From Escherichia virus TH47: a stretch of 64,000 nt of DNA. Within the stretch, counting starts at the first letter, position 1. Every line of letters begins with the position of its first letter. Below the pieces are notes generated by a model. That model was not told the origin of the DNA. It ran no database searches and worked only from the letters and a program-made list of their open reading frames with translations. Positions 14,407 to 38,808 of the stretch are shown here, piece by piece. Location of the stretch: the sequence record MT446416.1. One strand, 5' to 3'. The position numbers and the translations under genes are program-made.

Positions 14407-14410
14407 GGGT

Positions 14411-14450: not shown

Positions 14451-14455
14451 GAAAT

Positions 14456-15577
14456 ATGTTACCTTTTGTTAGAATGTTTGATTATGGAAATGAAGCACCT
14501 GATCCTAGTTCGGGATTTCGAATAATAAGTACAGGAGACGCATTACTATTAATTACTGAGAGTGGTGATTTGTGGGTGCGTGGTTATAACCGTTATGGCA
14601 AGTTAGGTATAGGTAATAACACCACTACCTATGTACTTGATTGGACGAAGGTTAGAAGTGATGTGAAGTTTGCGTGTGGTAGTGGATTGGTAACAGTTAT
14701 CTTTACTAAGGATAATCGTATATTGTACTGTGGTGACAAATGGTTTGAAACGGGTGGTGTTGGTAGTGCACAGATTTTCACATGGACAGATGTTACGCAC
14801 CAATTTGGGGTAGTAGATTTGAGTACAGTAAGGGATATGAAAATGTCTTATTACACGATTGGATTATTGACTACTAATAATCAATTATACGCTAAGGGAT
14901 TTGATAATAACCTATCATTTGGTGGGGTTACTAATAAGGCGACTGCTGTGTTTATTGCGAATAATGTACAAGAGTTGTATACGAGTTTAGTTAGTACTAT
15001 CTACGTTGATACAAGTGGTATATTACATCGTTGTGGCATGAGTGATAACGGTTCGTTGGGTAATAATGGTAGTTTAACTTCGTATCTAAGTTATTCACAG
15101 CCTGGTATGACGATTAAGGACATTGGAATGATGACTACGAACACTGGGTTATTATATACTGATTCTAGTGCACGCACGAGATATTTTATTGCTGGACAGA
15201 ACTTGAATAAACAGATGGGTAATGCGGCGTCTGCGAGTGCCATTACGAGTACTTACACAGAGCTTTCTGGTAGTGTTGATAAGTTTTCTTCTTTATGGGA
15301 GAATGATGGGATATTGATGACATTTGCTGTGGGTAAGAACACTAATCAGTTATTTTATGCTGGGACGAATACTTTTCATGCGAGTGGTGGTGAATCTTCA
15401 TATGCGGATACATATGAGTTAGTCCCGATGGTGTTTAATGACATACAGGAAGTGTTATGTGCACAGCGTTTATCGGTGGTACATGATTCTACGAAGTGGT
15501 ATTACTGTGGTGATGCTAATTCAATGTATGGTTTACCGGACGTAAGTACTTTTACTGAGTTACCGTTGCCCTTTTAA
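14456..15577 (+). CDS. RCC1-like repeat (beta-propeller) protein, paralog 1
   Basis: 373 aa; leader MLPFVRMFDYGN; repeated G-x-N-x-x-G-x-LG-x-G blocks. Confidence 0.7.
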   Translation: MLPFVRMFDYGNEAPDPSSGFRIISTGDALLLITESGDLWVRGYNRYGKLGIGNNTTTYVLDWTKVRSDVKFACGSGLVTVIFTKDNRILYCGDKWFETGGVGSAQIFTWTDVTHQFGVVDLSTVRDMKMSYYTIGLLTTNNQLYAKGFDNNLSFGGVTNKATAVFIANNVQELYTSLVSTIYVDTSGILHRCGMSDNGSLGNNGSLTSYLSYSQPGMTIKDIGMMTTNTGLLYTDSSARTRYFIAGQNLNKQMGNAASASAITSTYTELSGSVDKFSSLWENDGILMTFAVGKNTNQLFYAGTNTFHASGGESSYADTYELVPMVFNDIQEVLCAQRLSVVHDSTKWYYCGDANSMYGLPDVSTFTELPLPF

Positions 15578-15585
15578 TAATAGGT

Positions 15586-15616
15586 CAGTACTGAAATATG
15601 TACTGGTATTTTTTGT
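15586..15616 (+). terminator. candidate terminator
   Basis: CAGTA...TACTG hairpin followed by T-run. Confidence 0.4.
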
Positions 15617-15654
15617 AAATACTATATAATTATTTTAATTTTGGAGATTTAATC

Positions 15655-16824
15655 ATGTTACCTTTTGTTAGAATGTTTGATTATGGGAATGTAGCACCTG
15701 CACCACCGAAATTTAAAAAAATACTCACCAATAACTACAACGTTGCAGTTTTAACAAGCAGTGGGGATTTATATGTACGTGGGAATAATCAAAACGGTCA
15801 ATTGGGTTTAGGTCACAAAGAAAAAGTTACTACATGGACGTTTAGTACTTCTGGTGTTCAAGATTTTTGGTTTGGTAGTTCAACACTAGTGGTTAAAAAA
15901 ACCGATGATGAAATATGGTACAGTGGACAGTCAACCTCTGTTGGTATGCCAGGGGCATCTGTATCGGGGTGGACTTCTGCCATGCCGACATTCAATACAT
16001 TAACATTACCAATATTAGATATGGCAGTTAGTAATCAGACTACAAGTGTATTACTATCAGACCGAACAATATGGAGTACTGGGGTAGGAAGTAATGGTCA
16101 ATTGGGTAATGGAACTGCGACGAACAACATTTCAGGTAAATTCGTCAAAAGTACTGTTTCGACAGAAGAAGAACAATTACCAGTTAAATTGTTTGCCAGT
16201 AATTTAATGCATGGATATGTTACCGAGAACGGCTGGTTATACTACACTGGGCAACCCAATGCAGTTAGCACTAATGGCAGTGCGGTATATAGTGTTTATA
16301 CTAGTGCTCCTATTAGTCTAAGGAATACCATTAATATCAAGTACTATACAAATAATGGAACTTCGATGGCGATGGCTATTGGTACAGATCCAAATGGTAA
16401 GACCGTACTTGCTAATGGTGGCCCTAGGATATTTGGTGCACAGGCTGACGGAGTAAATGGTCAACTAAGTAATATTAGGCCATTTGCTGTTCAAACCGAA
16501 TCATTGATGCCTCCTGGGGATTTGGTAAGTATTGCTCATAATACTTCATATTATAACCAAGTTATTGCTACAACAGATGGTATATATTGTTGCGGCTACA
16601 ACCAATCTACACACGCTGGTATGTTAGGCATTGGTACATCTACTAACGCATTAGTATATACCAAAGCAATCGTACCTGATGGTTTTGATTATAGTAAATC
16701 GCAAATGGCAGGTGAGTATAACCGTACTTATATAACTGATGGTAATTTTGTATATAGTACAGGGACAGATGTCACATATGGTGGCATTAATAGCTTAGAA
16801 TTTGTAATAGATTCACCATTATAA
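15655..16824 (+). CDS. RCC1-like repeat protein, paralog 2
   Basis: 389 aa; MLPFVRMFDYGN; NGQLGLG / NGQLGNG motifs. Confidence 0.75.
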   Translation: MLPFVRMFDYGNVAPAPPKFKKILTNNYNVAVLTSSGDLYVRGNNQNGQLGLGHKEKVTTWTFSTSGVQDFWFGSSTLVVKKTDDEIWYSGQSTSVGMPGASVSGWTSAMPTFNTLTLPILDMAVSNQTTSVLLSDRTIWSTGVGSNGQLGNGTATNNISGKFVKSTVSTEEEQLPVKLFASNLMHGYVTENGWLYYTGQPNAVSTNGSAVYSVYTSAPISLRNTINIKYYTNNGTSMAMAIGTDPNGKTVLANGGPRIFGAQADGVNGQLSNIRPFAVQTESLMPPGDLVSIAHNTSYYNQVIATTDGIYCCGYNQSTHAGMLGIGTSTNALVYTKAIVPDGFDYSKSQMAGEYNRTYITDGNFVYSTGTDVTYGGINSLEFVIDSPL

Positions 16825-16832
16825 AAAGAAAA

Positions 16833-16862
16833 GCCAGTACTTGATACTGGCTTTTCTTTTTG
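16833..16862 (+). terminator. rho-independent terminator
   Basis: GCCAGTACTTGATACTGGC hairpin + TTTTCTTTT. Confidence 0.65.
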
Positions 16863-16897
16863 TATTAAATATAGTATAATGAATAAAGGAGGGAATT

Positions 16898-18007
16898 ATG
16901 TTACCTTTTGTTAGAATGTTTGATTACGGGAATATTGCACCTGAAGCTCCAAAGATAAAGAAAGTACTGTGCGGTCGTGATAATTTGTACGTCCTCTATG
17001 GCGATGGCTCACTTTATGGTTGTGGGGATAATGCGTATTTTCAGTTAAACGTTAAAAATGCAGCAACAAGAAATACTTGGATATTAATTTCAGAAGGTGT
17101 TACTGATGTATGGGCTGGGGCGTACAATATTCTTTATCTCAAGGGTGAAGAATTCATAATGCATGGAGTTACCACACAATTAGGCACAGGAGATACTATG
17201 ATTCCGTTGGGTGGTTTGAATGTTACTTCTTCATTTCCACATATATCTAATATTAAAATGATATCAATTGGTGCAGATACAATGCACTACGTTGATGCTA
17301 GTGGTTCGATTGTTTATGGTAGAGGCATGAATGGTAACTATTCACTCGGTGGTGGGTATTCCACGGCTCAGAGTACTTTTGTTTCAGTTATTAATACCGG
17401 AGCTAATACAGTCCTTGATATATTGGGTACACAGAATAACACATTAATATTAACATCAAATGGTGAACTTCTCGGTTGTGGGAGTAGTGGGTATGGTTCA
17501 CTTGGCGTAAGTCCAGGACAGTATACTACACTAGTAAGCAGGTTAACCAGTGTTAAACTGTTTGGTGGTAACAGTACTGGTACTCTTGCTTATTCAGCCA
17601 GCAATATATACAACGCAGGTTGGCAGTATGTTGGTCAACTTGGTAACGGTATTACAACGAACACACTACTATATCCATTTGCATTAAACTCCACTACTAT
17701 TGATAGTAAGATACATAAAATATCAAAATCAAGTACAACTTCACGTGTTAATATGTACGCAACAACCGAAGGAAAGATATATAGTACTGGTGAATTTGGT
17801 AGAAATGGTTCTGGTGGTAGTTTGAGTAGATTCACCAATACACTAACTTTAGATAATTACAACCCAGAAAAATCAGCATTATACACATGTGCAAATTTTA
17901 GTATAGTATTTGATGGTAATAATCAAATTTATGCTTGTGGTTCTTTTTTGTATGTGCCAGGTCCTATTACCACGAACTCATGGTCTGCAATTACAATGCC
18001 GAAATGA
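16898..18007 (+). CDS. RCC1-like repeat protein, paralog 3
   Basis: 369 aa; MLPFVRMFDYGN; upstream TATAAT-AAGGAGG cassette. Confidence 0.7.
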   Translation: MLPFVRMFDYGNIAPEAPKIKKVLCGRDNLYVLYGDGSLYGCGDNAYFQLNVKNAATRNTWILISEGVTDVWAGAYNILYLKGEEFIMHGVTTQLGTGDTMIPLGGLNVTSSFPHISNIKMISIGADTMHYVDASGSIVYGRGMNGNYSLGGGYSTAQSTFVSVINTGANTVLDILGTQNNTLILTSNGELLGCGSSGYGSLGVSPGQYTTLVSRLTSVKLFGGNSTGTLAYSASNIYNAGWQYVGQLGNGITTNTLLYPFALNSTTIDSKIHKISKSSTTSRVNMYATTEGKIYSTGEFGRNGSGGSLSRFTNTLTLDNYNPEKSALYTCANFSIVFDGNNQIYACGSFLYVPGPITTNSWSAITMPK

Positions 18008-18021
18008 TACTATAAAACTAT

Positions 18022-18051
18022 GCCAGTACTTGATACTGGCTTTTCTTTTTG
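18022..18051 (+). terminator. rho-independent terminator
   Basis: same GCCAGTACTTGATACTGGC hairpin + T-run. Confidence 0.65.
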
Positions 18052-18085
18052 ATTAAATATAGTATAAAGAATAAAGGAGGGAATT

Positions 18086-19243
18086 ATGTTACCTTTTGCT
18101 AGAATGGTTAAGTACGGAAATAGAGTTCCAGTACCTGTTGGGATTAAGAAGATAAACTCTGTCGGTACTAGTCAGATGATATTGACGAATACAGGCGACG
18201 TGTATGCATATGGTCAAAACACCAACTGGAGATTTGGTAGTGGTAGTTCTAGTGAGATTAGTGGGGGAGTTCCACAGATGGTAATGCAGGGTGTATCGGA
18301 TATGATATGTCATCCCAGATGTACATTATTAATAATGTCTGATGGACGTTATCTTGCTGCTGGGAACTCTACAGTACTGGGAGGTAGTTCAGGATTGAAT
18401 TATGTAGATGTTAGTTCTAAGTTCGCTACATTAGGAACTATCAAGAAAATTGATTTTACCCGAAGGAACAGTACTTCGTATACAGTATATGCATTAAACA
18501 CTGATGGTGATTTATATGGTATTGGATATGGAAACCGTGGTCAATTGGGGTTAGGTAAAAATAATAGTTTAGGTGCATTTACGAAGATAAACACCAATTG
18601 CAGGAATTTTGTAAGTTGTTCTTATGAGACGATAGTGGCTCTTAAGAATGATAATACTGCGTGGTTCTGTGGAAATTATTCGTTTATTAGTGGTAATACT
18701 GATGTTACTACATTTACTAACCTTGGTGATACTGCAATACTTAATATCTACGGTAATGGTTTAAATGGTGAGTTGTTATACACAAAAAGTGATGGTTTAT
18801 ATTTCCGTGGTTTAGCGTCGAACCGATATGGTTATTCATTCAGTTTAGAACAGCGTGCAATTAATAGCAAGATTACATTGCCGTTTGCTTATGATGTAAG
18901 TACGTTTAAGATTCTCACAGATGAACAGACAACAACCGTCAGTGTGTGGATTTCCAATTCAGACGTTCATTATGGGGTTGGTGCAAATAGCAGTAACACT
19001 AACAGAATGGGATTCACCAACCCAACTATGCCAGGTGCTGGTTCAAACTTTACATTACAGGATTTCAGTTCAGTGCAGGGCACTATTGAGACTGTTGTTA
19101 GTGCAAGTTATTATACAACTCTTATAAACTCTAATGGGAAAGTATTTGGCAGTGGGCCTTTTGATGATGATTCTTTAACTTATTTTCCTGGGAATAATCC
19201 AAAACTGATGAACTACACAGAAATTAAATTGAATATAAATTAG
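18086..19243 (+). CDS. RCC1-like repeat protein, paralog 4
   Basis: 385 aa; MLPFARMVKYGN; NRGQLGLG. Confidence 0.7.
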   Translation: MLPFARMVKYGNRVPVPVGIKKINSVGTSQMILTNTGDVYAYGQNTNWRFGSGSSSEISGGVPQMVMQGVSDMICHPRCTLLIMSDGRYLAAGNSTVLGGSSGLNYVDVSSKFATLGTIKKIDFTRRNSTSYTVYALNTDGDLYGIGYGNRGQLGLGKNNSLGAFTKINTNCRNFVSCSYETIVALKNDNTAWFCGNYSFISGNTDVTTFTNLGDTAILNIYGNGLNGELLYTKSDGLYFRGLASNRYGYSFSLEQRAINSKITLPFAYDVSTFKILTDEQTTTVSVWISNSDVHYGVGANSSNTNRMGFTNPTMPGAGSNFTLQDFSSVQGTIETVVSASYYTTLINSNGKVFGSGPFDDDSLTYFPGNNPKLMNYTEIKLNIN

Positions 19244-19255
19244 GAGAGAATAATT

Positions 19256-20416
19256 ATGTTACCTTTTGCTAGAATGGTTAAGTACGGAAACATTGCACCA
19301 TCCCCTGCTGCCATTAAAAAATTAGTTACCGGATATAACTGGGTTATGGTATTGGGTAGTAATGGTAAATTATATACCCGTGGTGCCAATTCAAGTGGTC
19401 AGTTGGGTTTAGGAGACAATACAGCCAGAACATCATGGACATTAACTGCATCGGATGTCATTGATGTATGGTGTGGTCAGTATGCCACAATGATTCACAA
19501 ATCAGATGGTACATATCAATACACAGGGAAACAATACAATGTGTGTATGGGTACATCATCTGTTAATGCATGGACTTCTATGCAAACTCTTATTAATCAA
19601 GTTAATTCTCAAGGAACAATTACAGAAATATCACTAGGAAATAACTTCATTTCAATACTTATGAGTAATGGGACCATTTGGTGTGGTGGTTATAACACAG
19701 GAGGACAGCTTGGCAATGCTTCTTATTCTAACAGTTTTACTACATTAGTAAAATCAATTATACCAAGTGGTGCGGTTCCGAAAAGGATTATTGCAGGTAT
19801 AAACATGTGTTCATTTATTGCCGAAAGTGGTAGATTATATTACACAGGTGAAGTTAATGGTGATACTAACAGTACTTCAACCGTGAGTTTTTATAATGTA
19901 TTCACATTGTCAGATAGATTACCAGCAACTGTTAGTACTATAGCATTTATAAGTACTGTTAATGATATGGTGCAAGGTATTGCAAGAAACAAAAGCACGT
20001 CAGTTGTTTCAGTGTACACAGGTGGTGATCAATTATATGGACAGGCTGCTACTGGTACTGATACTACAACAAAAATATTGACAACTGTTGTGGCAAATCA
20101 ACCACAAGGAAATATATTAGATATAGGATATGGGTACGGATATTACTCTAACTTTGTTATTACTGACACAGGTGTATACGTTGCTGGTAATAACTCAGCG
20201 ACTTCATACTATGGACAATTAAGTACAGGTTCAACTACTAACGTATTAACTTACACTAAGTCTATTACTCCTGATTTAAATTTCAATGATGTTAAAATCC
20301 AAAGTTGCTATGGTAAAACATATATGACAGATGGAAACAAAATATATTCAAGTGGTACTAACCTAGTATCTGGTGGTACTGCTAGTACTATATTTGTTGA
20401 AGATTCACCAATTTAA
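19256..20416 (+). CDS. RCC1-like repeat protein, paralog 5
   Basis: 386 aa; MLPFARMVKYGN; 12-nt spacer from paralog 4 (co-transcribed). Confidence 0.75.
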   Translation: MLPFARMVKYGNIAPSPAAIKKLVTGYNWVMVLGSNGKLYTRGANSSGQLGLGDNTARTSWTLTASDVIDVWCGQYATMIHKSDGTYQYTGKQYNVCMGTSSVNAWTSMQTLINQVNSQGTITEISLGNNFISILMSNGTIWCGGYNTGGQLGNASYSNSFTTLVKSIIPSGAVPKRIIAGINMCSFIAESGRLYYTGEVNGDTNSTSTVSFYNVFTLSDRLPATVSTIAFISTVNDMVQGIARNKSTSVVSVYTGGDQLYGQAATGTDTTTKILTTVVANQPQGNILDIGYGYGYYSNFVITDTGVYVAGNNSATSYYGQLSTGSTTNVLTYTKSITPDLNFNDVKIQSCYGKTYMTDGNKIYSSGTNLVSGGTASTIFVEDSPI

Positions 20417-20423
20417 AATAATG

Positions 20424-20452
20424 CCAGTACTCTGTACTGGTATTCTTATTTG
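20424..20452 (+). terminator. rho-independent terminator
   Basis: CCAGTACTCTGTACTGG hairpin + T-rich tract. Confidence 0.55.
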
Positions 20453-20486
20453 TATTAAATATAGTATAATGAATAAAGGAGGAATT

Positions 20487-21623
20487 ATGTTACCTTTTGC
20501 AAGAATGGTTAAGTACGGGAATATAAAAGTAAAGAGTACTATCCAAAAAGTTATCCTTGGTGGTGGTGGTCAATGTGTGGTAACATTACTCAGTGATGGT
20601 AGAGTGTATGGACGTGGTTACAACACTACACATGGGTTAGGTACTGGTACAACAACATTCGTAAGTGATTGGGTATTAATGGGCGATAATATTGTTGATA
20701 TCCATTCAAATGGTGTTCCTGGCACATTCCTTATCACCAAAGAAAATAGAATTTTGTATTCTGGTTGGGCGACACCAATCAATGGTACAACTGCACATTA
20801 TACACGTTTCACTGATTTAACATCAACTGTATTTGCTGCGGTGGATGTTAGTAATATTAAAACAATTACTGGAAATATTAATGCTACAATGGTCCTGTTG
20901 AATGATGGTTCTCTTTATGGTAGTGGTGCAAATACAGGTGTTATTGGTAATGGTAGAAATGTTGCATTATCAACACAAACATATGTAACTAATGATGTGA
21001 GAGAAGTAAAAACATATGGATCCATGACTACTATAACAAAAAATAACAATCAAATACTGGGTAGTGGTCTTTTATACCACGGCGTGAACGGTACAAATTC
21101 AATAATAAACACGTCTTCATATACATTACTGTACACATTACCGAGTTCTGATTGTTTTCAATTTGCATTTGATGAATATACATTTGGATATGTTGACCCT
21201 AGCACTAATACTTCTTATATAAGAGGTATACCAATAAATGGTTCATTGGGTAATGGTGTTACTAATAATACAGCAGTTACAACATGGGTTACTAAAGTTT
21301 GGAATACACCAATTGATAGTTCTATACCTAATAAATCACATACACTTAACCATGTCTCCTTGTTCAATGATGGAAACTTATGGACAACTGGTGCATCTAA
21401 TGTCGGTTATTCCAATGGTACAAATAGCACAACAGCTAATACTTGGACCAGTTCATCTAATTTACCATTCAACACCAATAACATCACAGACTATGCGTTG
21501 GGTAGTAATATTACTGTGGTGGTAATCGACTACAGGTCTATGTACATACTAGCTAACAACTTAATTGCTGGAACTACATCAACCACTTACAAATTTGAGC
21601 CATATAATTCTCCACCAGTTTAA
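20487..21623 (+). CDS. RCC1-like repeat protein, paralog 6
   Basis: conserved start MLPFARMVKYGN at 20487 after AAGGAGG; ORF-track extension to 20373 rejected. Confidence 0.7.
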   Translation: MLPFARMVKYGNIKVKSTIQKVILGGGGQCVVTLLSDGRVYGRGYNTTHGLGTGTTTFVSDWVLMGDNIVDIHSNGVPGTFLITKENRILYSGWATPINGTTAHYTRFTDLTSTVFAAVDVSNIKTITGNINATMVLLNDGSLYGSGANTGVIGNGRNVALSTQTYVTNDVREVKTYGSMTTITKNNNQILGSGLLYHGVNGTNSIINTSSYTLLYTLPSSDCFQFAFDEYTFGYVDPSTNTSYIRGIPINGSLGNGVTNNTAVTTWVTKVWNTPIDSSIPNKSHTLNHVSLFNDGNLWTTGASNVGYSNGTNSTTANTWTSSSNLPFNTNNITDYALGSNITVVVIDYRSMYILANNLIAGTTSTTYKFEPYNSPPV

Positions 21624-21629
21624 TATAAT

Positions 21630-21658
21630 GCCAGTACTTGAGTACTGGCTTTTCTTTT
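21630..21658. terminator. bidirectional terminator
   Basis: GCCAGTACTTGAGTACTGGC hairpin flanked by T-run, between convergent genes. Confidence 0.6.
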
Positions 21659-22307
21659 ACATATTATATAATGTGAATGCAGTCACTTTACCAGTTGTTG
21701 TTAGTTCATTATAAAGATACTCCAAGATTCTCGCACACTCTAAGTATATCTCGATATCATCATGAATAAGTGAGTACTGGAATAGCTGTTCTTCAGATAA
21801 TTTGTATTGACTCCCTCTTAATGAATTGAGAATATCTTTCACATCATCAAGTACTGGGTAAAGTACGAAATCTTCATCATATTTTGAAGCAATAAATTCA
21901 AATCCACCACCATCAGTACTAGATATACCAATCAGTACTTTATCAATCAAGTTAATGTTTATATAACGGTTGTGATTTGGGTGAATTGAAATCTCAAACA
22001 TACGAGTACTGTTACAATCAACATCAATATACAAATATACATCATTGAATTTATAAGTTAAGCAACCATACTCAATGTAATCAGAGCAAATAATTGATGA
22101 ATTTTTTCTCGTCTCTGCGTAATGCATATTGATATTCTTTTTACGCATAAGTAATTCGAACTTTGCACTAAACTTACCACCAGTAAGATAATTAGTATTA
22201 GGACGTTTGTAACTGGCAACTGGCCTATGGGATGATGAAAAGTATCTTTTTGTGAATCGTTTCTGTTTAGTGAAATATTCTTGATAGAACTTATTTCTTT
22301 TATTCAT
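21657..22307 (-). CDS. long leader-family protein (216 aa)
   Basis: start MNKRNKFYQEYF at 22307 with GAGG RBS; C-terminal domain paralogous to 12068..12739 and FQYS family. Confidence 0.6.
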   Translation of the reverse strand: MNKRNKFYQEYFTKQKRFTKRYFSSSHRPVASYKRPNTNYLTGGKFSAKFELLMRKKNINMHYAETRKNSSIICSDYIEYGCLTYKFNDVYLYIDVDCNSTRMFEISIHPNHNRYININLIDKVLIGISSTDGGGFEFIASKYDEDFVLYPVLDDVKDILNSLRGSQYKLSEEQLFQYSLIHDDIEIYLECARILEYLYNELTTTGKVTAFTLYNM

Positions 22308-22385
22308 GAGTGCCTCAATTAAATTGCTGTAAAATTGTACGTTATAAAATGAGTAAATAAAGTATAACACAAGGAGATTTTTATT

Positions 22386-23510
22386 ATGTTACCTTTCGTA
22401 TTGTTATTTGATTATGGGAACGAAAAACAAGAAAGTTCTTATGATGTTAGTGTATATGGAAACAATAACTACATTTTAAATAAACAAACTGGAAACCTTT
22501 TTGCATCTGGTGCTGCGGCATTTATGGGTGATAACACCGTTAAGTATTATATTACCCAAATCGAATCAAATGTTCATAGCTGTGAGATAGGCTTCCTATC
22601 ATCATGGATAATTAAGAAGGACAAAACTGTTTTCATTTTAGGAAACAAAAGTTCAATTGGTCTAACCGATTCGACCACATCATGGTTTGAAATTACAAAT
22701 TTATTTTCTGCTGTTCCTGAAATATGGGACAACCTATTTGAATGTAAAGTTCAATTGGGATATAACTGCATACGTGTTATGACACCACTAGGTTCAATCT
22801 ATGCGATTGGCACAAACACTTATGGTGCATTGGGTACTGGTACTACATCCTCATCAACTTCGTTCGTTAAAAGTGGTGCTGTGGATGCTGTACGCATGGA
22901 ATCAACTGAACGTTCAGTTTTCTATCAAAACAGTTCTGGAAAATGGTTTGGATGTGGTGATAACACATATGGTATACTAGGTCTAGGAACTACCGCCAGT
23001 CGTGTAAACTCATACACCGCACCAGTATGGACTAATGCAGAAGCTGTTAGCTTCTCTAACCGTGGTATCATATACAGCCTCAATGGTACTCTATACTCAT
23101 GTGGTGACAAAGTTAATGGTCAGCTAGGGGATGGATATACACAAAGCATAGACGCTGCCAGGAGCACACCATACACCATAGGAACCGCATTCCAAATTGG
23201 TAAGGCAATAACATCAGCTACACAAGCATCAGCCAACGTATTCATTGGTAAAGATAATAAGTTCTATGGTACTGGTAGTATTGCTGCTGGTATAAATGGT
23301 AGTGCTAGTGCTACATTAAGTAAAGTTACTGCGTTATCAGCATCACTACCACCTGACATTACATACAATGATATTATAACATTTAATACAGGGACCGTAA
23401 CTTTTATTCAAGCAAAAGGACAACTATATTATGTTGGTAGAAGAACTTACATAGATAATAGTTCAGACGTTACCACACAGTTCAGTTTAATTGGTGGCTT
23501 AGATAATTAA
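22386..23510 (+). CDS. RCC1-like repeat protein, paralog 7
   Basis: 374 aa; MLPFVLLFDYGN; YGALGTG / YGILGLG / NGQLGDG. Confidence 0.7.
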   Translation: MLPFVLLFDYGNEKQESSYDVSVYGNNNYILNKQTGNLFASGAAAFMGDNTVKYYITQIESNVHSCEIGFLSSWIIKKDKTVFILGNKSSIGLTDSTTSWFEITNLFSAVPEIWDNLFECKVQLGYNCIRVMTPLGSIYAIGTNTYGALGTGTTSSSTSFVKSGAVDAVRMESTERSVFYQNSSGKWFGCGDNTYGILGLGTTASRVNSYTAPVWTNAEAVSFSNRGIIYSLNGTLYSCGDKVNGQLGDGYTQSIDAARSTPYTIGTAFQIGKAITSATQASANVFIGKDNKFYGTGSIAAGINGSASATLSKVTALSASLPPDITYNDIITFNTGTVTFIQAKGQLYYVGRRTYIDNSSDVTTQFSLIGGLDN

Positions 23511-26053: not shown

Positions 26054-26824
26054 TTAAATTTTCTCAAGGAACAAGTTTTCGCACTGCTCTTCCCAATCAT
26101 ACGGGTTGTTGTTGTATACTGCTGAAATCAACAGAGGCATACGCAGTGAAGGAGCACGAAGTGCATCTTCATGTTTCAGCATCCAATTCAGGATTGCTTT
26201 GCTACCATTACTATTAACACCTTTAGTTGACAGGATGTTGGTCTTGTTCATTACGTTTTCAATGTGAATCATGATATCGCTTTTAGTCTGGATCTGTAAG
26301 TCAACATACACAGAGCGAGACATAAGAGCAGCATAGTGAGCAGACATTTTGGTTTTAGCTTTAGCATTCAGTGCTAAATCTTTGTTAGTAATGAATACGA
26401 TACGACCGTTAAAATCAAAGCTGTTAGGGATACCGTTGGTAGTTAAGTACTTAGAGCTAGTCATGTAAGACACAGTACGTTTACCGCTGTCCAGTACTGC
26501 TTTGAGCAGGTTCATACCGTCTTCTGAATCAAAGATGCTGTCCATATCATCCAGTACTAATACGTTAGTGCTGTGACGATTCTTGTACAGAACTTCATAC
26601 AGAGCAAGAGTAGTCATCTTACCACTGATAGTAACTACGTTCCATTCTGCTGCGTCATGAGCTTTCTGGAGGCGTTGTGACAGGGTGTAAGTCTTACCAA
26701 CACCAGGTGCACCGCTGACAACCATACTTTTTACAGTACTGCTATCATCGAGCAAACACTCAAGAGCAACCATCATGGAGTTGAAGTTTTTCTGGATTTG
26801 AATGCTACGTGCTTCTCTGGTCAT
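26054..26824 (-). CDS. AAA+/P-loop ATPase
   Basis: Walker A GAPGVGKT and Walker B VLVLDDMD; 256 aa. Confidence 0.75.
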   Translation of the reverse strand: MTREARSIQIQKNFNSMMVALECLLDDSSTVKSMVVSGAPGVGKTYTLSQRLQKAHDAAEWNVVTISGKMTTLALYEVLYKNRHSTNVLVLDDMDSIFDSEDGMNLLKAVLDSGKRTVSYMTSSKYLTTNGIPNSFDFNGRIVFITNKDLALNAKAKTKMSAHYAALMSRSVYVDLQIQTKSDIMIHIENVMNKTNILSTKGVNSNGSKAILNWMLKHEDALRAPSLRMPLLISAVYNNNPYDWEEQCENLFLEKI

Positions 26825-26852
26825 TTCGTTATCCTCATCAGTTGATGAAATA

Positions 26853-26885
26853 ATTATAGCAAAAAGGGCTGACCGAAGTCAACCC
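26853..26885 (-). promoter_or_regulatory. terminator-promoter cassette (copy b)
   Basis: GGGTTGACTTCGGTCAGCCC hairpin + T5, TTGACT(-35)-N18-TATAAT, then GAGGA RBS. Confidence 0.6.
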
Positions 26886-26895
26886 TTTTGTATTG

Positions 26896-28044
26896 TTATT
26901 TCTTGTCTAAGATTTGTACTTCACCATAAATCTGTACGATTTGCTTTTCTGGATTACCTTCGATAAGTTTTAGAAAAGATTTCAGTACTGCAACGTGGTC
27001 TTCATAGTATGCAATCCTAATGAAGTTGTAACCGTTGTTGATGGCGTACTCAGTTTTTATTGCGTCTTTTATCTTTCTTTGTTCAAAAGCACTTTTGCCG
27101 CCCCATAATTTGATTGATTGAAAATGTTGTACTCCATCATATTCCAGAAGGATTCGTTTACTTTCAATAAATCGATCAAAAGGTAATGGCTTTTTGAACT
27201 TACAATCAATGAAGCGTTTCTCTTTTATGGTATCATCTTCTAACATACCATCAATATCAACTAAATTCTTACTCTCACCTGATGAACAGGTAGGACATGA
27301 AGACTCAGATGATATATAGTTATGATATGATGGATAAAATGGGTTATTACAATCATTACACTGTAAATGTAATTTTGTTTTTGATGTTTCATAAACACCT
27401 CCCACAAATCCAATAAAGGTATTATTACAAACTGCGTTTCTTTTATCTATTTCATATTTGACTACTAGAATATTCAAACGAATCTTTTTTGCCGAGCTGT
27501 AATCACGACATTCAACACAATTATGACCATTAAGAAAATCATAAATGTTCTCACATAAACGAGTATGGTTGTTTTTACATTTGTACCAAAATTTAGATTT
27601 GAATTTTGTAGTAAATTCACCTTCAAATTTGATAAATGTAATAGATTCACGTTTACACTCTTTTTGTATTTCTTTTAATGCATCAGATTCAGATATTTTG
27701 ATAGTGTTTTGGTACTCTTTTCTTTTCTTCTTACCACATATCTGACATCCACCAGAGATAAGATAACTTTTCAGTGAACTTGTACATAAAGTGCTGCATG
27801 TTCCACATCTAAACAGAACTTTATTCTTTTCTAGTCCAAAAAATTGATTACTGTTTGATATCTGTAAGCCAAAAATAGTATCTTCTTTTTCAATGGCTTT
27901 TAGTTTAATTTCATCAATTCTAACGATAGTTTTTTTATTTTTTACAGGAACATTTTCTATTTTCATGTACTCAAATTTAGTACATAATTCTTCAATAATA
28001 TAAACTTTCTCACCATCTTCATTTAAATAGTACTTTTCAAACAT
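26896..28044 (-). CDS. zinc-ribbon-repeat protein with C-terminal PD-(D/E)xK-like (DUF559/Vsr-like) nuclease domain
   Basis: multiple CxxC pairs; C-terminal ...DCKF...LLEYDGVQHF...FIRIAY pattern. Confidence 0.55.
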   Translation of the reverse strand: MFEKYYLNEDGEKVYIIEELCTKFEYMKIENVPVKNKKTIVRIDEIKLKAIEKEDTIFGLQISNSNQFFGLEKNKVLFRCGTCSTLCTSSLKSYLISGGCQICGKKKRKEYQNTIKISESDALKEIQKECKRESITFIKFEGEFTTKFKSKFWYKCKNNHTRLCENIYDFLNGHNCVECRDYSSAKKIRLNILVVKYEIDKRNAVCNNTFIGFVGGVYETSKTKLHLQCNDCNNPFYPSYHNYISSESSCPTCSSGESKNLVDIDGMLEDDTIKEKRFIDCKFKKPLPFDRFIESKRILLEYDGVQHFQSIKLWGGKSAFEQRKIKDAIKTEYAINNGYNFIRIAYYEDHVAVLKSFLKLIEGNPEKQIVQIYGEVQILDKK

Positions 28045-28060
28045 TACTCAATACTCCTTT

Positions 28061-28273
28061 TCAGTACTGAACCCGTCCAGCACCATTAATCTTAGCCTGA
28101 ATCTTATCTTTTTCGACAAGACCTTCTTTGTAATCGATGGACGTATTATCGCACTGAATTACATCTAAGTCAAGTACTTCTTGTGTACTTAATGAAGTAT
28201 TGTCTGCAATTTGTTGTAAAGTAATGATATCAGTACCGAAGAATTCTGCTAAACGTATAAAAGATAATTTCAT
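28061..28273 (-). CDS. hypothetical protein (70 aa)
   Basis: ORF co-oriented and tightly spaced with downstream nuclease gene. Confidence 0.5.
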   Translation of the reverse strand: MKLSFIRLAEFFGTDIITLQQIADNTSLSTQEVLDLDVIQCDNTSIDYKEGLVEKDKIQAKINGAGRVQY

Positions 28274-28299
28274 GTGTTACCTCTTAAGTTGATGAAATA

Positions 28300-28331
28300 A
28301 TTATAGCAAAAAGGGCCGACCGAAGTCAACC
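28300..28331 (-). promoter_or_regulatory. terminator-promoter cassette (copy c)
   Basis: same hairpin and TATAAT. Confidence 0.6.
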
Positions 28332-29116
28332 ATGTTTGAAAGGATTTTTTAATGGTTTTAGTACTGTATGTATTCTGCTGTGTAGTTCTTCTTCCCACAA
28401 AACATTTACATTATAAACTAAATCATTGTAATCACTGTACTCAAATATAAAATCATACTTTTCATCAAAAGTATGAGAAATCAATTTCATTTTCATCAGT
28501 ACAATAGAACTTTTAAATTTATATGTTTCTTTTTCTTCTCCGGTTTTTGAGATTGGTATATTTTTTACAAATTCTTTGAATTCATCATCAGTCATAGTTT
28601 AACCATATATTATTTAACCAGTATTAGTCCCAATATAGTCACTCCATAAATTATATATATTGTTTTCAACACAATCATCATCGCTTAATTCTATCATTGA
28701 TGATATAAGTACTGATACGGTTTGTGTGTTCAAATCGGTATCGCGATGTTTCAACCACCATTTCAGGGTGAGGGTGAGTGTTCGTGCTGTGTTTGGATTA
28801 TTTGTAAATTTATATCTGGTGGTATCGAGAATCATTTTAAATCTTCTTTCATTTAATTATATAAACAAAGTACTCATGTAATTTTAATTACTTTTGTATA
28901 TTGAATCACATTGTCTACTCAATAGTTTATAGTATGCTTTACCACGAGGAAATAGTTTACGTGTATGTTCTCCTTTTCCCCACGGTCCTAAATATGTTTT
29001 ACGCGTGTCATGATTATTAAAGTTCTTTGATACAGTTGATTTTGTACCAATAGGATCTTTCTTACTAAAATAGATAGACATTATAAAGTTTTCTCTTTAC
29101 TAAGTTTATGTATTAA

Positions 29117-29136
29117 CGGACTGACCGAAGTCAACC
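29117..29136 (-). terminator. cassette hairpin (copy d, degenerate promoter)
   Basis: GGGTTGACTTCGGTCAGTCC downstream of denV stop. Confidence 0.5.
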
Positions 29137-29143
29137 CTTTCCT

Positions 29144-29659
29144 TTAATAATTATTCATTTCATCTTTGATTTGTTCTTCAATTTCGTCGAACATATCAGT
29201 ACTAGATTCTATATTACTACTTACGTCCTGCATATCTTTAACGTACTGTGGGCGTTCAACGTCAGTAAATTTATACCACTTAGGCTTCATCTGGAGCTTC
29301 TCAATCAAACGCTCACGAGACATTTTAATCTCTGACTCCGATGGTACGTAGTCATTACAAAACTCAGCAGGGAAGCCGCTAATGTCGTTTACTTCAGTGT
29401 TTTGAATCTTCATACCACGACGCAAACATTCATTAACAATATCAATATGACGCTTCTGTAAGTACAATAACTTGTTGTAGAAGAATGTTACATGACCTGA
29501 ACCTAACAGGTAAGTACTGTTAATTTTGAAATCACGGACTCGCTTACGTGCTTGAACATGTTTTTGTACAGCACCAAACACACGTGGGAGTTCACGATAT
29601 TCAGCCATCAGATGTTGGTCAGCAAGTTCTTTAACGTGTACTAAGTTAATGCGTGTCAT
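29144..29659 (-). CDS. denV: pyrimidine-dimer DNA glycosylase (endonuclease V) homolog
   Basis: N-terminal [35 protein letters not shown] closely matches T4 DenV as recalled; about 35-aa acidic C-terminal extension. Confidence 0.85.
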
Positions 29660-29687
29660 GTATTCATCCTCTCGTTTCGATGAAATG

Positions 29688-29719
29688 ATTATAGCAAAAA
29701 GGGCTGACCGAAGTCAACC
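29688..29719 (-). promoter_or_regulatory. terminator-promoter cassette (copy e)
   Basis: hairpin + TATAAT upstream of denV. Confidence 0.6.
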
Positions 29720-29728
29720 TTTTTCTTA

Positions 29729-31252
29729 TTATTGTTTTACCCCGCCCCACTTTTCATAGATTGCAATAATCTTATACAAGTTTGTGATGTTAGTTGTTTC
29801 CGTGTAACCATCTTTCATTTCATTTTTGGTAAGTACACCTTTACCAAAAATCCTCTTACACTCCTGTTCTGCTGACCTACAACTTTTGGGAGTGCTGAAA
29901 TGATAATACAACATTGAAGAAACTTTATATATACATTTATTGTCTTGGTGCTTCTGGCGGCGACCATGAACCTTTTCAATTCCATATTTCAATGCAATAG
30001 GTAACTCACCATCATAGATCACATGAATGTATGCAAATTGTTGATTATGATTAGAACATTCGGGGCAACCGGAACCACCAAGGTGAGCATTTGGAGTTAT
30101 TTTGAACTCACCATGTTCGCTACATTCAACCTTAACTAATTTATGTGCATTCACATAATTCGTTTTAGGATATGTGTACTTCCCATTATGTACTTTAGAT
30201 GCCTTTTCAATAAATTCAGGTGTACTAGAACGTTCACATCCTGAACATTTAGAACAACCATTTTTTTCATGTAGATGGTGTGTTGGTTGCTGCGTGAACA
30301 CACCATGTTCTTTACAAACAATCGATACTTTAGTTTTTAAGTTTTTATATTTAACTAAAGAATAATCATATTTGTCTCCATGTATTTCATGTGCTTTTTT
30401 GATGAACGTTTCGGTAGTTAACGCCATCTTTCCACTACACTCTAAACAACCATTGCCAGCCACATGTTTACTGGCAAGTTGCTCAAAATCACCATGTTCT
30501 GGACATGTAATTATAACTTTTCCACGTCCATTTATATAGATAGTTTTATCATATGAATATTTGTCACCGTGAACTTCTTTACATTTTTTGATGAAATCCG
30601 GGGTGTCTTTATATCTATACGTACCACTACATTTAGCACATTTAAAACCACTTAGGTGGTTTGCTGGGGTTTGTTCAAAATCACCATGTTCTTTGCATGT
30701 TATTGTAACTTTGGTTTTTGAGTTGATGTACACAACTTTATCGTATGTGTACTCAAAATTATGTTTAACATTTGCCTTCATGATAAAGTGCTCATTCGTA
30801 GAAACTCTTCCCAAGTGTACAATTGAACCGTCTTTATTCATCTTAGTGCATAAATTACATCCACGTTTTTTTCTTAAATGATCACTAACTCTTTTCTCAA
30901 AATCACCATGTTCTGGACATGTTATAATTACTCTAGAAGAATTAGAAACATCATCTTGTACCTTATCATAAAGGTACACATCACCAAAAATAGCACGAGA
31001 CTGTTCGATGAATTTAGCTTTACCCTTTCGAAAGTGTAGTCCATTTTTTGTATATCTACATTTTTTGCAGCCAGATGACCGTAAATGAGTTCCAGCAATT
31101 TGTTCGAACTCACCATGTTCTGGACATGTAATAATCACTGAGGTTCTTGAATTAACATAAACCACTTTAGTATAATCGTACTTAAAATTATGCAATTTAT
31201 TCGCTTGTTTTACAAACTCTTCTTTATTCATTGCGACTGGCATTGTATTCAT
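29729..31252 (-). CDS. zinc-ribbon-repeat protein with C-terminal GIY-YIG-superfamily (T5orf172-like) domain
   Basis: repeated ITCPEHGDFEQ...C..C modules; C-terminal AYIHVIYDG...LKYGIE...DGYTET. Confidence 0.55.
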   Translation of the reverse strand: MNTMPVAMNKEEFVKQANKLHNFKYDYTKVVYVNSRTSVIITCPEHGEFEQIAGTHLRSSGCKKCRYTKNGLHFRKGKAKFIEQSRAIFGDVYLYDKVQDDVSNSSRVIITCPEHGDFEKRVSDHLRKKRGCNLCTKMNKDGSIVHLGRVSTNEHFIMKANVKHNFEYTYDKVVYINSKTKVTITCKEHGDFEQTPANHLSGFKCAKCSGTYRYKDTPDFIKKCKEVHGDKYSYDKTIYINGRGKVIITCPEHGDFEQLASKHVAGNGCLECSGKMALTTETFIKKAHEIHGDKYDYSLVKYKNLKTKVSIVCKEHGVFTQQPTHHLHEKNGCSKCSGCERSSTPEFIEKASKVHNGKYTYPKTNYVNAHKLVKVECSEHGEFKITPNAHLGGSGCPECSNHNQQFAYIHVIYDGELPIALKYGIEKVHGRRQKHQDNKCIYKVSSMLYYHFSTPKSCRSAEQECKRIFGKGVLTKNEMKDGYTETTNITNLYKIIAIYEKWGGVKQ

Positions 31253-31272
31253 CCTCTCGTCTTGATGAAATA

Positions 31273-31305
31273 ATTATAGCAAAAAGGGCTGACCGAAGTC
31301 AACCC
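31273..31305 (-). promoter_or_regulatory. terminator-promoter cassette (copy f)
   Basis: same element. Confidence 0.6.
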
Positions 31306-31712
31306 TTTTTTCTTTCAATCAAACATAGTCTACCAGAATGTACCATGCGATGGTGATTAGAACAAAGAATCATACACTTTCGAATTTCATCTTTGATAGA
31401 TTCTCGACTTTTACTGAACATAGAACTTGGTGTATGTTCTTTGGTATTAGGATCAAGATGGTGAAAGTCTAAACATTCTGGATACTTCATCATACAAATA
31501 CTACAACCATAAAATGATTTAACTCTGGTCATGAAATCTTTATTTTTTCTTTTGATTTCTTCAAGTTTTTTGACCTCAGTTTTTTTATTTCTGGTTTTCT
31601 TACTGGTAATATTTCTACAATCGTTGCATGTATTTCTATGTTTCCCAGTATCACTTCTTATACCAAATTCACTAATGTTTTTTTCAATATTACATGTAAT
31701 ACACTTCTTCAT
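31299..31712 (-). CDS. HNH endonuclease (137 aa)
   Basis: CSICMM...CLDFHHLDPNTKE...CMILCSNHHRMVH; extra CxxC pairs. Confidence 0.7.
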   Translation of the reverse strand: MKKCITCNIEKNISEFGIRSDTGKHRNTCNDCRNITSKKTRNKKTEVKKLEEIKRKNKDFMTRVKSFYGCSICMMKYPECLDFHHLDPNTKEHTPSSMFSKSRESIKDEIRKCMILCSNHHRMVHSGRLCLIERKKG

Positions 31713-34885: not shown

Positions 34886-35299
34886 TTATGCTGGTACACA
34901 ATTTTTTATAATGAATACACGTTTCATGAATGAACTTTCATATACGTACTTCAGTTTACCATTTTCACGCATACGATGAAACACATCTTTACCACTAGTA
35001 CTCCAGGTTGAACCAGTCTCTGTATCAACATTGTTCATAACACCAGATGTTACGTTCACCCCGTACTTGAAGCTAAAGGTACTACCTTCTTCTACCAGAG
35101 GGATTGGTGTACTACGTTCATGTTCCAGTACAAGTTTACTGCCGATGATGTTGTACGAAGTTAGATTGCATTTTAAAACACCCATCTCTTGTGCAGTTGG
35201 GTAATTCTTCTCAAACAAATCAGATACTTCATTTGCATAACAAACTGAACTAATCATCAGAAGTAATGAACTGATAGAACGGAAAATAACTTTTAACAT
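34886..35299 (-). CDS. secreted protein (137 aa)
   Basis: signal-peptide-like N-terminus; cassette copy upstream. Confidence 0.6.
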   Translation of the reverse strand: MLKVIFRSISSLLLMISSVCYANEVSDLFEKNYPTAQEMGVLKCNLTSYNIIGSKLVLEHERSTPIPLVEEGSTFSFKYGVNVTSGVMNNVDTETGSTWSTSGKDVFHRMRENGKLKYVYESSFMKRVFIIKNCVPA

Positions 35300-35325
35300 G
35301 TTTGCCTCCAGTAGTTGATGAAATG

Positions 35326-35358
35326 ATTATAGCAAAAAGGGCCGACCGAAGTCAACCC
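35326..35358 (-). promoter_or_regulatory. terminator-promoter cassette (copy g)
   Basis: same element. Confidence 0.6.
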
Positions 35359-35976: not shown

Positions 35977-36022
35977 TGCATTACCTCTTATAAAAACCCT
36001 CTACAATATTTACAAAAAAAAA

Positions 36023-36040
36023 GGTTGACCGAAGTCAACC
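36023..36040 (-). terminator. cassette hairpin (copy h)
   Basis: perfect GGTTGAC-CGAA-GTCAACC palindrome with 9-nt T-run on minus strand. Confidence 0.6.
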
Positions 36041-36050
36041 TTTTAAATGT

Positions 36051-37623: not shown

Positions 37624-38808
37624 CTACTTAATACTGTTCACATCAAGTTCTTGTACATTATATGATTCAATTATTTTTATTAATTTTTCATATTCCGATT
37701 CATTGATTGTTTCAGTATACCCGTCCAAATAATTTATTTTATCAATAACTTTTCTTTTTATGCCACTCATATGTTTAATAAAATATTCAAGTTCTTTGAT
37801 TAAAATACCATCAGCACTGTAATATGTTTTATATTTTTCAGTTCTAAATAAGTTTTTATTATATTGTTCAAATCTGTATATATAGTTGTTTGTTATACCA
37901 AATTTATAATATAACCTACCATTACCTAGTACTCGATGTATATAAAAATACCCAGGTTTACTTGGGTCATATCCACCTCGACTACAACTTGGACAACCTC
38001 TTTTCTTTTGAACAATATTTTGATATCGAGTTGTCCATTCAGGATGTTCACATTCTGAACATTTTAATGTAATTAATGTATGTACATTTTTATATATAAA
38101 TGGTTTATAAGTATATCCGTTAGATGTGCAAATTTCATTAAGTCTTTTAATTGATTCATCTTGTGAAAGACAAAGTTTTCTAGCTGTGGATTGATTTCCA
38201 CATTTTGCACATCCATTACCTTGATATACAAATTTATCATAACTTAAACTAAATTCATCATGGTCGGGATTGCAACATTTTAATGTAATTTTAGTTCTAT
38301 TATTTTTATATTCAAAAGGTTTATAAGTATATCCAGTAGTATTACATATGTTATTTACATTTAATTCTGCTTGTTGTTGGGTTAATTTTAACTTTCCACC
38401 ACATTCAATACATCCATTTTTCTTATTAACTAAAGAATTATAATTAGTTTCATGTGGTTTATGGGAGGCAACTCCACAATGAATTATTATTTTTGTTCCT
38501 ATAGCACCTTTAAAATCAAAGGGTTCATAAGTATATCCTTTTAATTCACATATTTCATGAACTTTAGTTCTTGCTGTTTTTTCTTTTAAAGAATTTCTTC
38601 CTTTACATTCTGGACACCCAGTTCTTTTATAAATGAATTTACTAAATTTACATTTCCATTCTTCATGTTTAAAGTTATCACATTTAAGTTCTAATATTGT
38701 TTTAGTGTTAATATAAGTGAAAGGTTTATATGTATAATTTTGTTCTAAACATCTGTTCGCTACTATTTTTTCAGCTTCTTCTTGTGTTAATCGTATCCCA
38801 CTAGCCAT
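37624..38808 (-). CDS. zinc-ribbon-repeat protein with C-terminal GIY-YIG-superfamily (T5orf172-like) domain
   Basis: four C..H..C..C modules; C-terminal GYFYIHRV...YKFGIT...DGYTETINESEY. Confidence 0.55.
   Translation of the reverse strand: MASGIRLTQEEAEKIVANRCLEQNYTYKPFTYINTKTILELKCDNFKHEEWKCKFSKFIYKRTGCPECKGRNSLKEKTARTKVHEICELKGYTYEPFDFKGAIGTKIIIHCGVASHKPHETNYNSLVNKKNGCIECGGKLKLTQQQAELNVNNICNTTGYTYKPFEYKNNRTKITLKCCNPDHDEFSLSYDKFVYQGNGCAKCGNQSTARKLCLSQDESIKRLNEICTSNGYTYKPFIYKNVHTLITLKCSECEHPEWTTRYQNIVQKKRGCPSCSRGGYDPSKPGYFYIHRVLGNGRLYYKFGITNNYIYRFEQYNKNLFRTEKYKTYYSADGILIKELEYFIKHMSGIKRKVIDKINYLDGYTETINESEYEKLIKIIESYNVQELDVNSIK

Follow-up and report, generated by a model that had tools for sequence, protein, structure and literature searches.

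The window analysed here, a 64,000-nt stretch of Escherichia virus TH47 (record MT446416.1), belongs by its sequence affinities to an Asteriusvirus-like jumbo coliphage; its closest records (WPEC3, CMSTMSU, fEgEco12 and vB_Ec-M-J) are about 95% identical, and the taxonomy of the G17 and BF17 records gives the same placement. Our subject is a repeated hairpin of this window which, in its complete form, is fused to a promoter-like segment, a leader and a ribosome-binding site (RBS). Its 20-nt core, GGGCTGACCGAAGTCAACCC on the plus strand, has 11 matches with at most three mismatches (at 1019, 26866, 28313, 29118, 29701, 31286, 35339, 36022, 38861, 42457 and 51254) and none in 100 shuffled sequences. 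All 11 copies share one orientation and read GGGTTGAC-TTCG-GTCAGCCC on the minus strand, the coding strand of all genes in the hairpin-bearing part of the window. Every hairpin starts 5-10 nt past the stop codon of the upstream gene or overlaps it, and an A3-6 tract precedes the stem. The first-pass annotation of this sequence had placed an upstream TGA stop inside the stem of the copy at 42457 (its copy j); we found the TGA within TTGAC to be the stop of the upstream open reading frame (ORF) there and at 28313 and 31286, an arrangement annotated likewise in WPEC3 and fEgEco12. Ten of the copies lie between 26 and 52 kb, where the best relatives cover just 30-78% of the sequence.

The same annotation had counted eleven copies of a 45-bp terminator-promoter unit. 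Eleven hairpins are indeed present, and its coordinates are correct, TTGATGAAATAATTATAGCAAAAAGGGCTGACCGAAGTCAACCC lying at 26842-26885, but the whole cassette occurs in only six copies (26866, 28313, 29701, 31286, 35339 and 42457), with one further degenerate copy at 1019. The full layout is the hairpin, TTTTTG(C/T)TATAAT, (T/C)ATTTCATC(A/G)A, an RBS (GAGG) and an ATG; the ATG lies about 41 nt past the hairpin and GAGG about 8 nt ahead of the ATG, so that the claim of a downstream RBS holds. The copies at 36022, 38861 and 51254 consist of the hairpin and T7-8, with no good -10 at the right distance, and at 29118 the 3' arm is damaged and both the T run and the -10 are absent. The U-tract is 5 U long in the bifunctional copies versus 7-8 U in those that are terminator-only. 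We infer that the hairpin-only copies are plain terminators or half-decayed cassettes; the four copies without a good -10 correspond to the 'half PeSLs' (PeSL, promoter-early stem-loop) described in Comeau 2014 (PMC4122927). The copies and the features tied to them are as follows.

26842-26885, minus strand: full cassette, the reference copy; hairpin 26866-26885, -35 TTGACT 26877-26882, U-tract 26861-26865, TG 26860-26861, -10 TATAAT 26853-26858, predicted start near A26846, Shine-Dalgarno (SD) sequence GAGGA 26832-26836.
26822-26824, minus strand: ATG of the AAA-ATPase-like gene downstream of the reference copy.
28289-28332, minus strand: full cassette, stem TGGTTGAC/GTCGGCCC with two U·G pairs, positioned to drive a 70-aa gene and then a 382-aa endonuclease-like gene.
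28326-28595, minus strand: upstream ORF of the copy at 28313, its TGA stop within the stem.
29118-29137, minus strand: hairpin-only remnant just 3' of denV, with an altered 3' arm (GTCAGTCC) and no T run or -10; similarity to relatives ends inside it.
29677-29720, minus strand: full cassette, positioned to drive denV (29144-29659); one of two direct-repeat cassettes around a 507-aa gene.
31262-31305, minus strand: full cassette, positioned to drive the 507-aa endonuclease-like gene; its stem includes the TGA that ends the HNH gene 31299-31712.
35315-35358, minus strand: full cassette, stem with two U·G pairs, positioned to drive ORF 34886-35299.
36014-36041, minus strand: terminator-like hairpin, perfect stem AGGTTGAC/GTCAACCT plus T8, no -10 at 16-19 nt.
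38854-38880, minus strand: hairpin plus T7, with a weak possible -10 TATAGT at a spacer of 19, upstream of an endonuclease-like gene (394 aa, window-specific); from here on WPEC3 and fEgEco12 are similar again.
42433-42476, minus strand: full cassette with an A-U closing pair and TGTTATAAT; upstream TGA stop in the stem.
51247-51273, minus strand: hairpin with a TTCT loop plus T7, directly 3' of a sigma-70-like gene (51281-52246); a separate -10-like site, TGATACAAT, lies about 35 nt beyond the hairpin.
995-1038, minus strand: degenerate cassette with a U-A closing pair, TTTTGCTATTAT, a spacer of 17, TATTAT and no ORF directly behind; past it come a non-coding stretch with the motif CTAGCCCACCGGGTGC and then a promoter from a different family.

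Folding of the sense strand gave -14 to -20 kcal/mol for most intact copies, with z about -4 to -6, and weaker values for 28313 (-10.3 kcal/mol, z -2.6) and the damaged 29118 (-8.5). Two copies folded on both strands were less stable in antisense (-17.6 vs -13.6 and -10.3 vs -5.9) because most copies carry GTCAG or GTCGG rather than GTCAA, which leaves U·G pairs in the sense RNA and C·A mismatches in the antisense. We then gathered 104 distinct hairpin variants, from the window as well as from phages related and unrelated to it, and analysed covariation in 51 of them: 93.5% of cells were paired, compensatory double changes occurred at five pairs, the closing pair took G-C, A-U, U-A and C-G, and the observed covariation score was reached by none of 500 shuffles. 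All one-sided changes were wobble-compatible (U-A to U·G or G-C to G·U, in either direction), retaining pairing in the sense RNA only, and the loop varied while including many stable tetraloops of the UNCG (TTCG, TACG, TCCG) and GNRA (GTAA, GAGA, GCAA) types. The fold, the covariation and the wobble and loop patterns together point to the hairpin of the sense-strand RNA, in other words a terminator, as the object of selection. A GC-rich stem, a 3-8-nt loop and an immediate U-tract of 4-8 U were found in 10 of the 11 copies, the exception being 29118. A terminator pattern scan of the window picked up five copies, and the GenBank record of G17 annotates the same hairpins as ARNold terminators (-17.0). 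Rfam, searched with the whole window at its gathering thresholds, returned no family. The fold, the compensatory changes and the T run all argue for the earlier proposal of an intrinsic terminator on the minus strand.

The same DNA carries a strong promoter match. A promoter scan listed all six full copies, with TTGACT and TATAAT 18 nt apart, 11 of 12 consensus positions matched and the -10 extended by a TG; this TG, one base ahead of the -10 hexamer, takes the form TGCTATAAT or TGTTATAAT in each. The -35 takes its sixth base from the start of the loop, and the spacer is made of the 3' arm and the T run. The first-pass annotation had put the TTGACT of the stem 17-19 nt from a TATAAT, in agreement with the 18 nt of these copies and the 17 nt of copy 1019. 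About 7 nt past the -10 lies a conserved CATC that is common to a second, unrelated promoter family in the window, which supports CATC as the start site, and we infer from its position that transcription starts at its A. The further claim that each unit ends one transcript and starts the next is consistent with the sequence of just 6-7 of the 11 copies. The phage itself encodes a sigma-70-family protein (51281-52246, minus strand, regions 2 and 3 detected), directly upstream of the hairpin at 51254.

The combination extends well beyond this phage. A 49-nt cassette had 518 matches in 173 phage records, and an exact 18-mer had 61 matches in 42 IMG/VR stretches, most of which continue into T3-5, in many cases TG, and a hexamer resembling TATAAT with the spacing unchanged. 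The hairpin/-10 unit occurs in the jumbo phages RaK2, 121Q, GAP32, CBB, Serratia BF and Yersinia fHe-Yen9-04, and also in CR3 (Vequintavirinae), in Aeromonas phage 65 and KVP40-like phages (Straboviridae) and in Brochothrix phage A9 (Herelleviridae, with a Gram-positive host). Its spacing is constant despite unrelated flanks in RaK2, GAP32, CBB, CR3, Aeromonas 65, KVP40-like D482 and Brochothrix A9; in CR3, Aeromonas 65, Brochothrix A9 and D482 the cassette stands between ordinary co-oriented genes. Among 596 Gb of bacterial genomes we found nine exact 20-mers, each single-copy and terminator-like, and in 5,426 complete E. coli genomes no match to the cassette, and these two results led us to reject a host origin.

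These data bear on the idea that the element is an intrinsic terminator only, its TTGACT...TATAAT being incidental and downstream genes being expressed by read-through or from other promoters. Four of the 11 copies have no usable -10, GenBank records annotate the element just as a terminator, and the nine bacterial 20-mers resemble plain terminators; yet in most of the 61 copies, with unrelated flanks and from many phage lineages, TG-n-TATAAT or TG-n-TATTAT lies 17-18 nt from the stem TTGAC, the CATC start region recurs in the second promoter family, and a promoter that matches 11 of 12 consensus positions and has an extended -10 would rank among the strongest E. coli promoter matches. A terminator without a promoter is therefore very unlikely. 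A different possibility is that the inverted repeat is a DNA operator, bound by a dimeric phage regulator on the -35, or a recombinase site, with the RNA hairpin as a by-product. The repeat comes close to a palindrome, with the -35 of a strong promoter at its centre, other promoters in the window bear a palindrome (CAGTACTG) in their spacer, and the authors who described PeSLs speculated on a stem-loop-binding protein. However, in most copies the DNA palindrome is broken by T:G (GTCAG, not GTCAA) and pairing is kept in the sense RNA only, the loop is free to vary yet often forms a UNCG or GNRA RNA tetraloop, the outer pairs covary among G-C, A-U and U-A, a T run always follows the hairpin, and the element is kept in phages with unrelated gene sets, even in one with a Gram-positive host. 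An operator or recombinase site as the primary function thus appears highly improbable.

As relatives cover only 65-78% of the 25-50 kb part of the window, and 30-50% of 26-30 kb, we regard 25-50 kb as a mosaic, hyperplastic region. To compare gene content, we located the cassettes and mapped the ends of similarity in the matching regions of G17, WPEC3, fEgEco12, JP4, Turkey3 and BF17. Ends of similarity lay inside the hairpin or at the border of the cassette at 26866, 28313, 29118, 29701, 31286, 38861 and 51254. Across the seven phages, three genes (the AAA-ATPase-like one, the 70-aa one and denV) each retain one and the same cassette and leader but have three to five different upstream neighbours. 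Conversely, what comes after the 3' end of denV varies: in fEgEco12 it is the cassette belonging to the ATPase-like gene, in BF17 that of the 70-aa gene, and in the window and G17 truncated hairpins leading into other small genes. The interval between the HNH gene and denV holds a single cassette in fEgEco12, WPEC3, JP4 and Turkey3; in the window it holds the cassette at 31286, whose hairpin, promoter and RBS region are of the type that usually precedes denV, then the 507-aa gene, absent from this site in all six relatives, and then the cassette at 29701, the duplication spanning from hairpin to RBS. Judged from the sequence, such a duplicated cassette is the footprint expected if a cassette-bearing segment had recombined into a resident cassette. 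Overall, 9 of 31 breakpoint clusters fell inside cassettes, which make up 3.3% of the sequence (binomial p = 4.5e-7). The comparative genomics proposed in the first-pass annotation thus bore out its module-delimiter claim, in that cassettes stand at the junctions where gene content or order differs among relatives. A transposable element or MITE was rejected as an explanation: copies in the window and in the six relatives are co-oriented with transcription, the sole inverted repeat is the hairpin, and the junction alignments contain no flanking duplications.

Many of the genes adjoining the hairpins are endonuclease-like.

29729-31252, minus strand: 507-aa endonuclease-like gene with zinc-finger repeats DUF4379 and DUF723; PHROG 681, 559.
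26896-28273, minus strand: 70-aa gene and 382-aa endonuclease-like gene with DUF4379; PHROG 559, 681, 9084; between the cassettes at 28313 and 26866.
37624-38808, minus strand: 394-aa endonuclease-like gene with CapR and DUF4379; PHROG 681; window-specific.
50553-51197, minus strand: 214-aa HNH endonuclease-family gene; PHROG 953; window-specific, downstream of the hairpin at 51254.

The window-specific genes adjoining hairpins are 26896-28044, 29729-31252, 37624-38808 and 50553-51197; these four, together with 31299-31712, fall into PHROG families annotated as HNH or homing endonucleases, and treble-clef zinc-finger repeats (DUF4379, with DUF723 or CapR) are present in three of the five. Inside the 507-aa gene, at 30461-31192, a DNA repeat of about 60-95 nt recurs three to four times at a spacing of about 200 nt and probably corresponds to its DUF4379/DUF723 zinc-finger modules. 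It is possible, though not probable, that the cassettes are part of mobile homing-endonuclease units that carry their own terminator, promoter and leader for harmless insertion, the mosaicism then arising from endonuclease-triggered break repair (intronless homing) rather than from recombination between cassettes, an explanation that partly overlaps with our own. Besides these five ORFs, three of them with DUF4379, it is favoured by the hundreds of distant relatives of the cargo proteins in Vibrio, Escherichia, Klebsiella and Aeromonas phages, often several per genome. The best relative of the 394-aa gene is in Klebsiella phage RaK2 (56% aa identity), where the leader and first residues at one hairpin copy (L021), possibly but not necessarily the same site, also closely resemble that gene. 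On the other side, modules without an endonuclease (the 70-aa and 89-aa genes, denV and the ATPase-like gene) are also reshuffled at cassettes, the cassettes of CR3, Aeromonas 65, Brochothrix A9 and Vibrio D482 stand between ordinary genes with no adjoining endonuclease annotated, and the nuclease activity and target sites of the cargo are putative. The phage collection held no cargo homologue of more than 60% aa identity at another cassette-flanked site, so the movement of identical cargo is not traceable; the only traceable piece is a conserved 3' end common to a Turkey3 gene at a different junction. We consider endonuclease-driven mobility a serious partial rival of, or partner to, plain cassette-cassette recombination.

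Taken together, the data make it probable that the element is a composite regulatory cassette of the PeSL type, carried by a jumbo coliphage that is Asteriusvirus-like (RaK2-like). In the model that we favour, RNA polymerase arriving from the upstream gene would transcribe AAAA-GGGUUGAC-UUCG-GUCAGCCC-UUUUU, and the 8-bp stem, extendable by A·U pairs and capped by UUCG, would cause intrinsic termination at the U-tract, the transcript being released within the promoter spacer. The same duplex DNA would serve as a promoter of the early, sigma-70 class, with the TTGAC of the 5' arm and the first T of the loop as its -35, the 3' arm and T run as its 18-nt spacer, and TGcTATAAT as its extended -10. 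Initiation about 7 nt further on, at the A of CATC, would yield a 20-25-nt leader with GAGG, followed by the ATG, and since these transcripts would begin past the hairpin, they would escape termination by the hairpin of their own cassette. Each gene or small operon would become a transcriptionally insulated module, and the copies, 45-70 nt long, near-identical and in one orientation, would provide portable homology in which recombination or double-strand-break repair could resolve, allowing modules, many of them free-standing endonuclease genes, to be inserted, deleted or reordered without polar effects.

Several observations weigh against this model. The U-tract of the full cassettes is merely 5 U long, so that termination may be partial (attenuation), and the 18-nt spacer is one nt over the optimum. 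Literature searches found no mapping of transcript 5' or 3' ends for this phage or any Asteriusvirus, and the phage-encoded sigma-70-like factor makes more than one holoenzyme a candidate for reading the cassette promoters. Breakpoints occurred in 7 of 10 cassette-bearing gaps versus 7 of 21 other intergenic gaps (Fisher p = 0.06), a weak excess that makes the breakpoint signal partly just a preference for intergenic sites; several similarity junctions fall within genes, and the cargo is rich in endonuclease-family genes, which are able to move by homing without any special role of the cassette. The preference of breakpoints for cassettes over other spacers is suggestive, and on statistics alone we do not claim the cassette as a stronger recombination site.

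How one hairpin came to be in unrelated phage families is a testable question of convergence versus horizontal spread. Convergence of the hairpin/-10 unit among lineages is plausible because its functional parts (the -35, the tetraloop and the C-G pair closing it, the complementary arm, the GC clamp, the U-run and the extended -10) leave almost no base unconstrained. The alternative, which we offer as a rather improbable speculation, is that GGGTTGAC-tetraloop-GTCAGCCC, the U-run and TGnTATAAT form a horizontally spreading pan-phage 'plug', found in RaK2-like phages, KVP40-like and Aeromonas T4-likes, rV5-like Certrevirus and a Gram-positive SPO1-like phage and in nearly no bacteria. If that were true, the plug would travel with free-standing endonuclease genes and give inserts instant insulated early expression, instead of being reinvented in each lineage. 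More generally, our reading extends the PeSL idea, in which insulating cassettes double as linkers for module exchange, from T4-like to RaK2-like jumbo phages, where most genes have no known function and accessory regions differ between near-identical isolates. The cassette would mark early transcription units, would help to explain whole-module differences among the therapy-candidate coliphages of this group, and would offer a compact engineering part comprising a terminator, a strong promoter and a leader in about 65 nt.

The window contains further repeats and promoters. A second repeated promoter cassette occupies 865-8343 on the minus strand in 11 copies (865, 1461, 2734, 3055, 3891, 4907, 5804, 6605, 7161, 7822 and 8282; one every 0.3-1.3 kb) and consists of AAAAAGTACTTGCAWAC...GCGTATAATGTWTTACATCRAG, a leader hairpin GGGGAA-loop-TTCCCC, an RBS and an ATG; the stems of its leader hairpin vary among copies with complementarity kept, and it looks like another PeSL subclass, with the stem-loop past the -10. 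Near-consensus promoters (TTGACA or TTGCAA with TATAAT) that have the palindrome CAGTACTG directly ahead of the -10 lie at 1476, 5389, 9572, 32874, 44219 and 48178, all on the minus strand; the AGTACT core of this palindrome is tandemly repeated at 8382-8444, an arrangement that could represent an operator bound by a phage regulator. The 16-nt motif CTARCCCAYNGGGTGC occurs six times against 0.06 expected, on the plus strand at 5043-5058, 6743-6758, 8650-8665 and 8866-8881 and on the minus strand at 969-984 and 6804-6819, and also occurs past hairpin cassettes elsewhere (L010, L020, L028, L035 and L048), namely in 121Q and in jumbo-phage contigs from metagenomes. A small RNA downstream of the copy at 1019, around this motif, was rejected, as the RNA folds no better than shuffled sequences (z = +0.5); the motif may therefore be a protein-binding DNA site. 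At about 14400-22400 on the plus strand lies a tandem array of six or seven paralogous genes, about 1.2 kb long and annotated in relatives as 'regulator of chromosome condensation' (RCC1-like), each with a repeated upstream region made of the hairpin CCAGTACT...AGTACTGG, TATAAT and AGGAGG. At 9068-9219, a repeat finder detected imperfect 8-nt tandem repeats of the CGTCTAGC / CATCCAGC type (its family D5).

The idea of a joined terminator and promoter is not new, as the PeSL concept has already been published for T4-like phages (PMC2839356, PMC4122927). In those accounts a PeSL combines an early promoter of sigma-70-like type with a stem-loop; the units concentrate in hyperplastic regions and are found where close relatives differ by indels (Arbiol et al. 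2010, PMC2839356; Comeau et al. 2014, PMC4122927). Five subclasses were distinguished by the position of the stem-loop, one of them overlapping the -35, and the stems include G-T pairs; in lacZ reporters, the stem-loops of RB49/phi1 PeSLs lowered expression about as rrnB T1 does, and their promoters reached about 13,000 Miller units (PMC2839356). Inverse PCR pointed to mini-circles formed between flanking PeSLs. For the Vibrio phages nt-1 and KVP40, the later paper gives a stem consensus A3-4 G3-loop-C3 T3-4 and a promoter TTGYVH-N17-TAWWAT (PMC4122927). We found no paper on PeSLs or a composite terminator-promoter in Asteriusvirus or other RaK2-like phages, and a literature search with the motif string returned no phage paper. 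The RaK2, CBB, PA5oct and rV5 papers report sigma-70-like promoters and ARNold terminators separately, or nothing, with no composite element, and a Kayvirus transcriptome paper describes one promoter directly after a terminator, with no shared design. What is modestly new here is a near-invariant hairpin across phage families and its association with endonuclease genes.

Compared with canonical Rho-independent terminators, the hairpin has the same GC-rich 8-bp stem, stable tetraloop, U-tract and upstream A-tract able to pair with it, but in the cassette the stem and U-tract have a second role, supplying a promoter with its -35 and spacer. Free-standing homing endonuclease genes of the T4 seg/mob type lie between conserved genes, are variably present in close relatives and have expression signals of their own. 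The endonuclease genes of the window resemble them in all three respects, whereas the cassette bounds non-endonuclease genes too, and homing or cleavage by the proteins encoded here is putative.

At the level of sequence, all the defining features of a PeSL are present: a sigma-70-like promoter joined to a stable stem-loop, an upstream AT-rich stretch, an SD sequence and ATG downstream, an intergenic site past a stop codon, and a location in a hyperplastic region, at indels or replacements between close relatives. A T4-like host phage is the exception, the closest records being Asteriusvirus, and this concerns where the family was described, not its mechanism. The PeSLs of RB49/phi1 (PMC2839356) share this architecture and this clustering with the cassettes of the window, as well as the G-T stem pairs and a subclass overlapping the -35, and the placement of cargo between two cassettes recalls their mini-circle model. 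They differ in that the phage here is a RaK2-like jumbo phage (Asteriusvirus) of about 350-380 kb, not a T4-like phage (Straboviridae); a single near-invariant stem (GGGTTGAC/GTCAGCCC) predominates, and its 5' arm invariably contains the -35, in contrast to the variable polyG/polyC stems at varied positions in RB49; there are about 5-10 full cassettes per genome versus more than 60 in RB49; and the cargo consists mostly of endonuclease-family genes versus ORFans in RB49/phi1, the copies here being known from sequence alone. The stem and promoter consensus of the nt-1/KVP40 PeSLs, as given in PMC4122927, fits the cassette; the KVP40-like phage D482 has an identical 20-nt hairpin with TATAAA at the same spacing, and KVP40 itself has a close variant. 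The phage family and host differ, and the nt-1/KVP40 PeSLs, as described in that paper, may also differ in having the stem-loop just upstream of the promoter, whereas in the cassettes of the window the -35 lies inside the stem.

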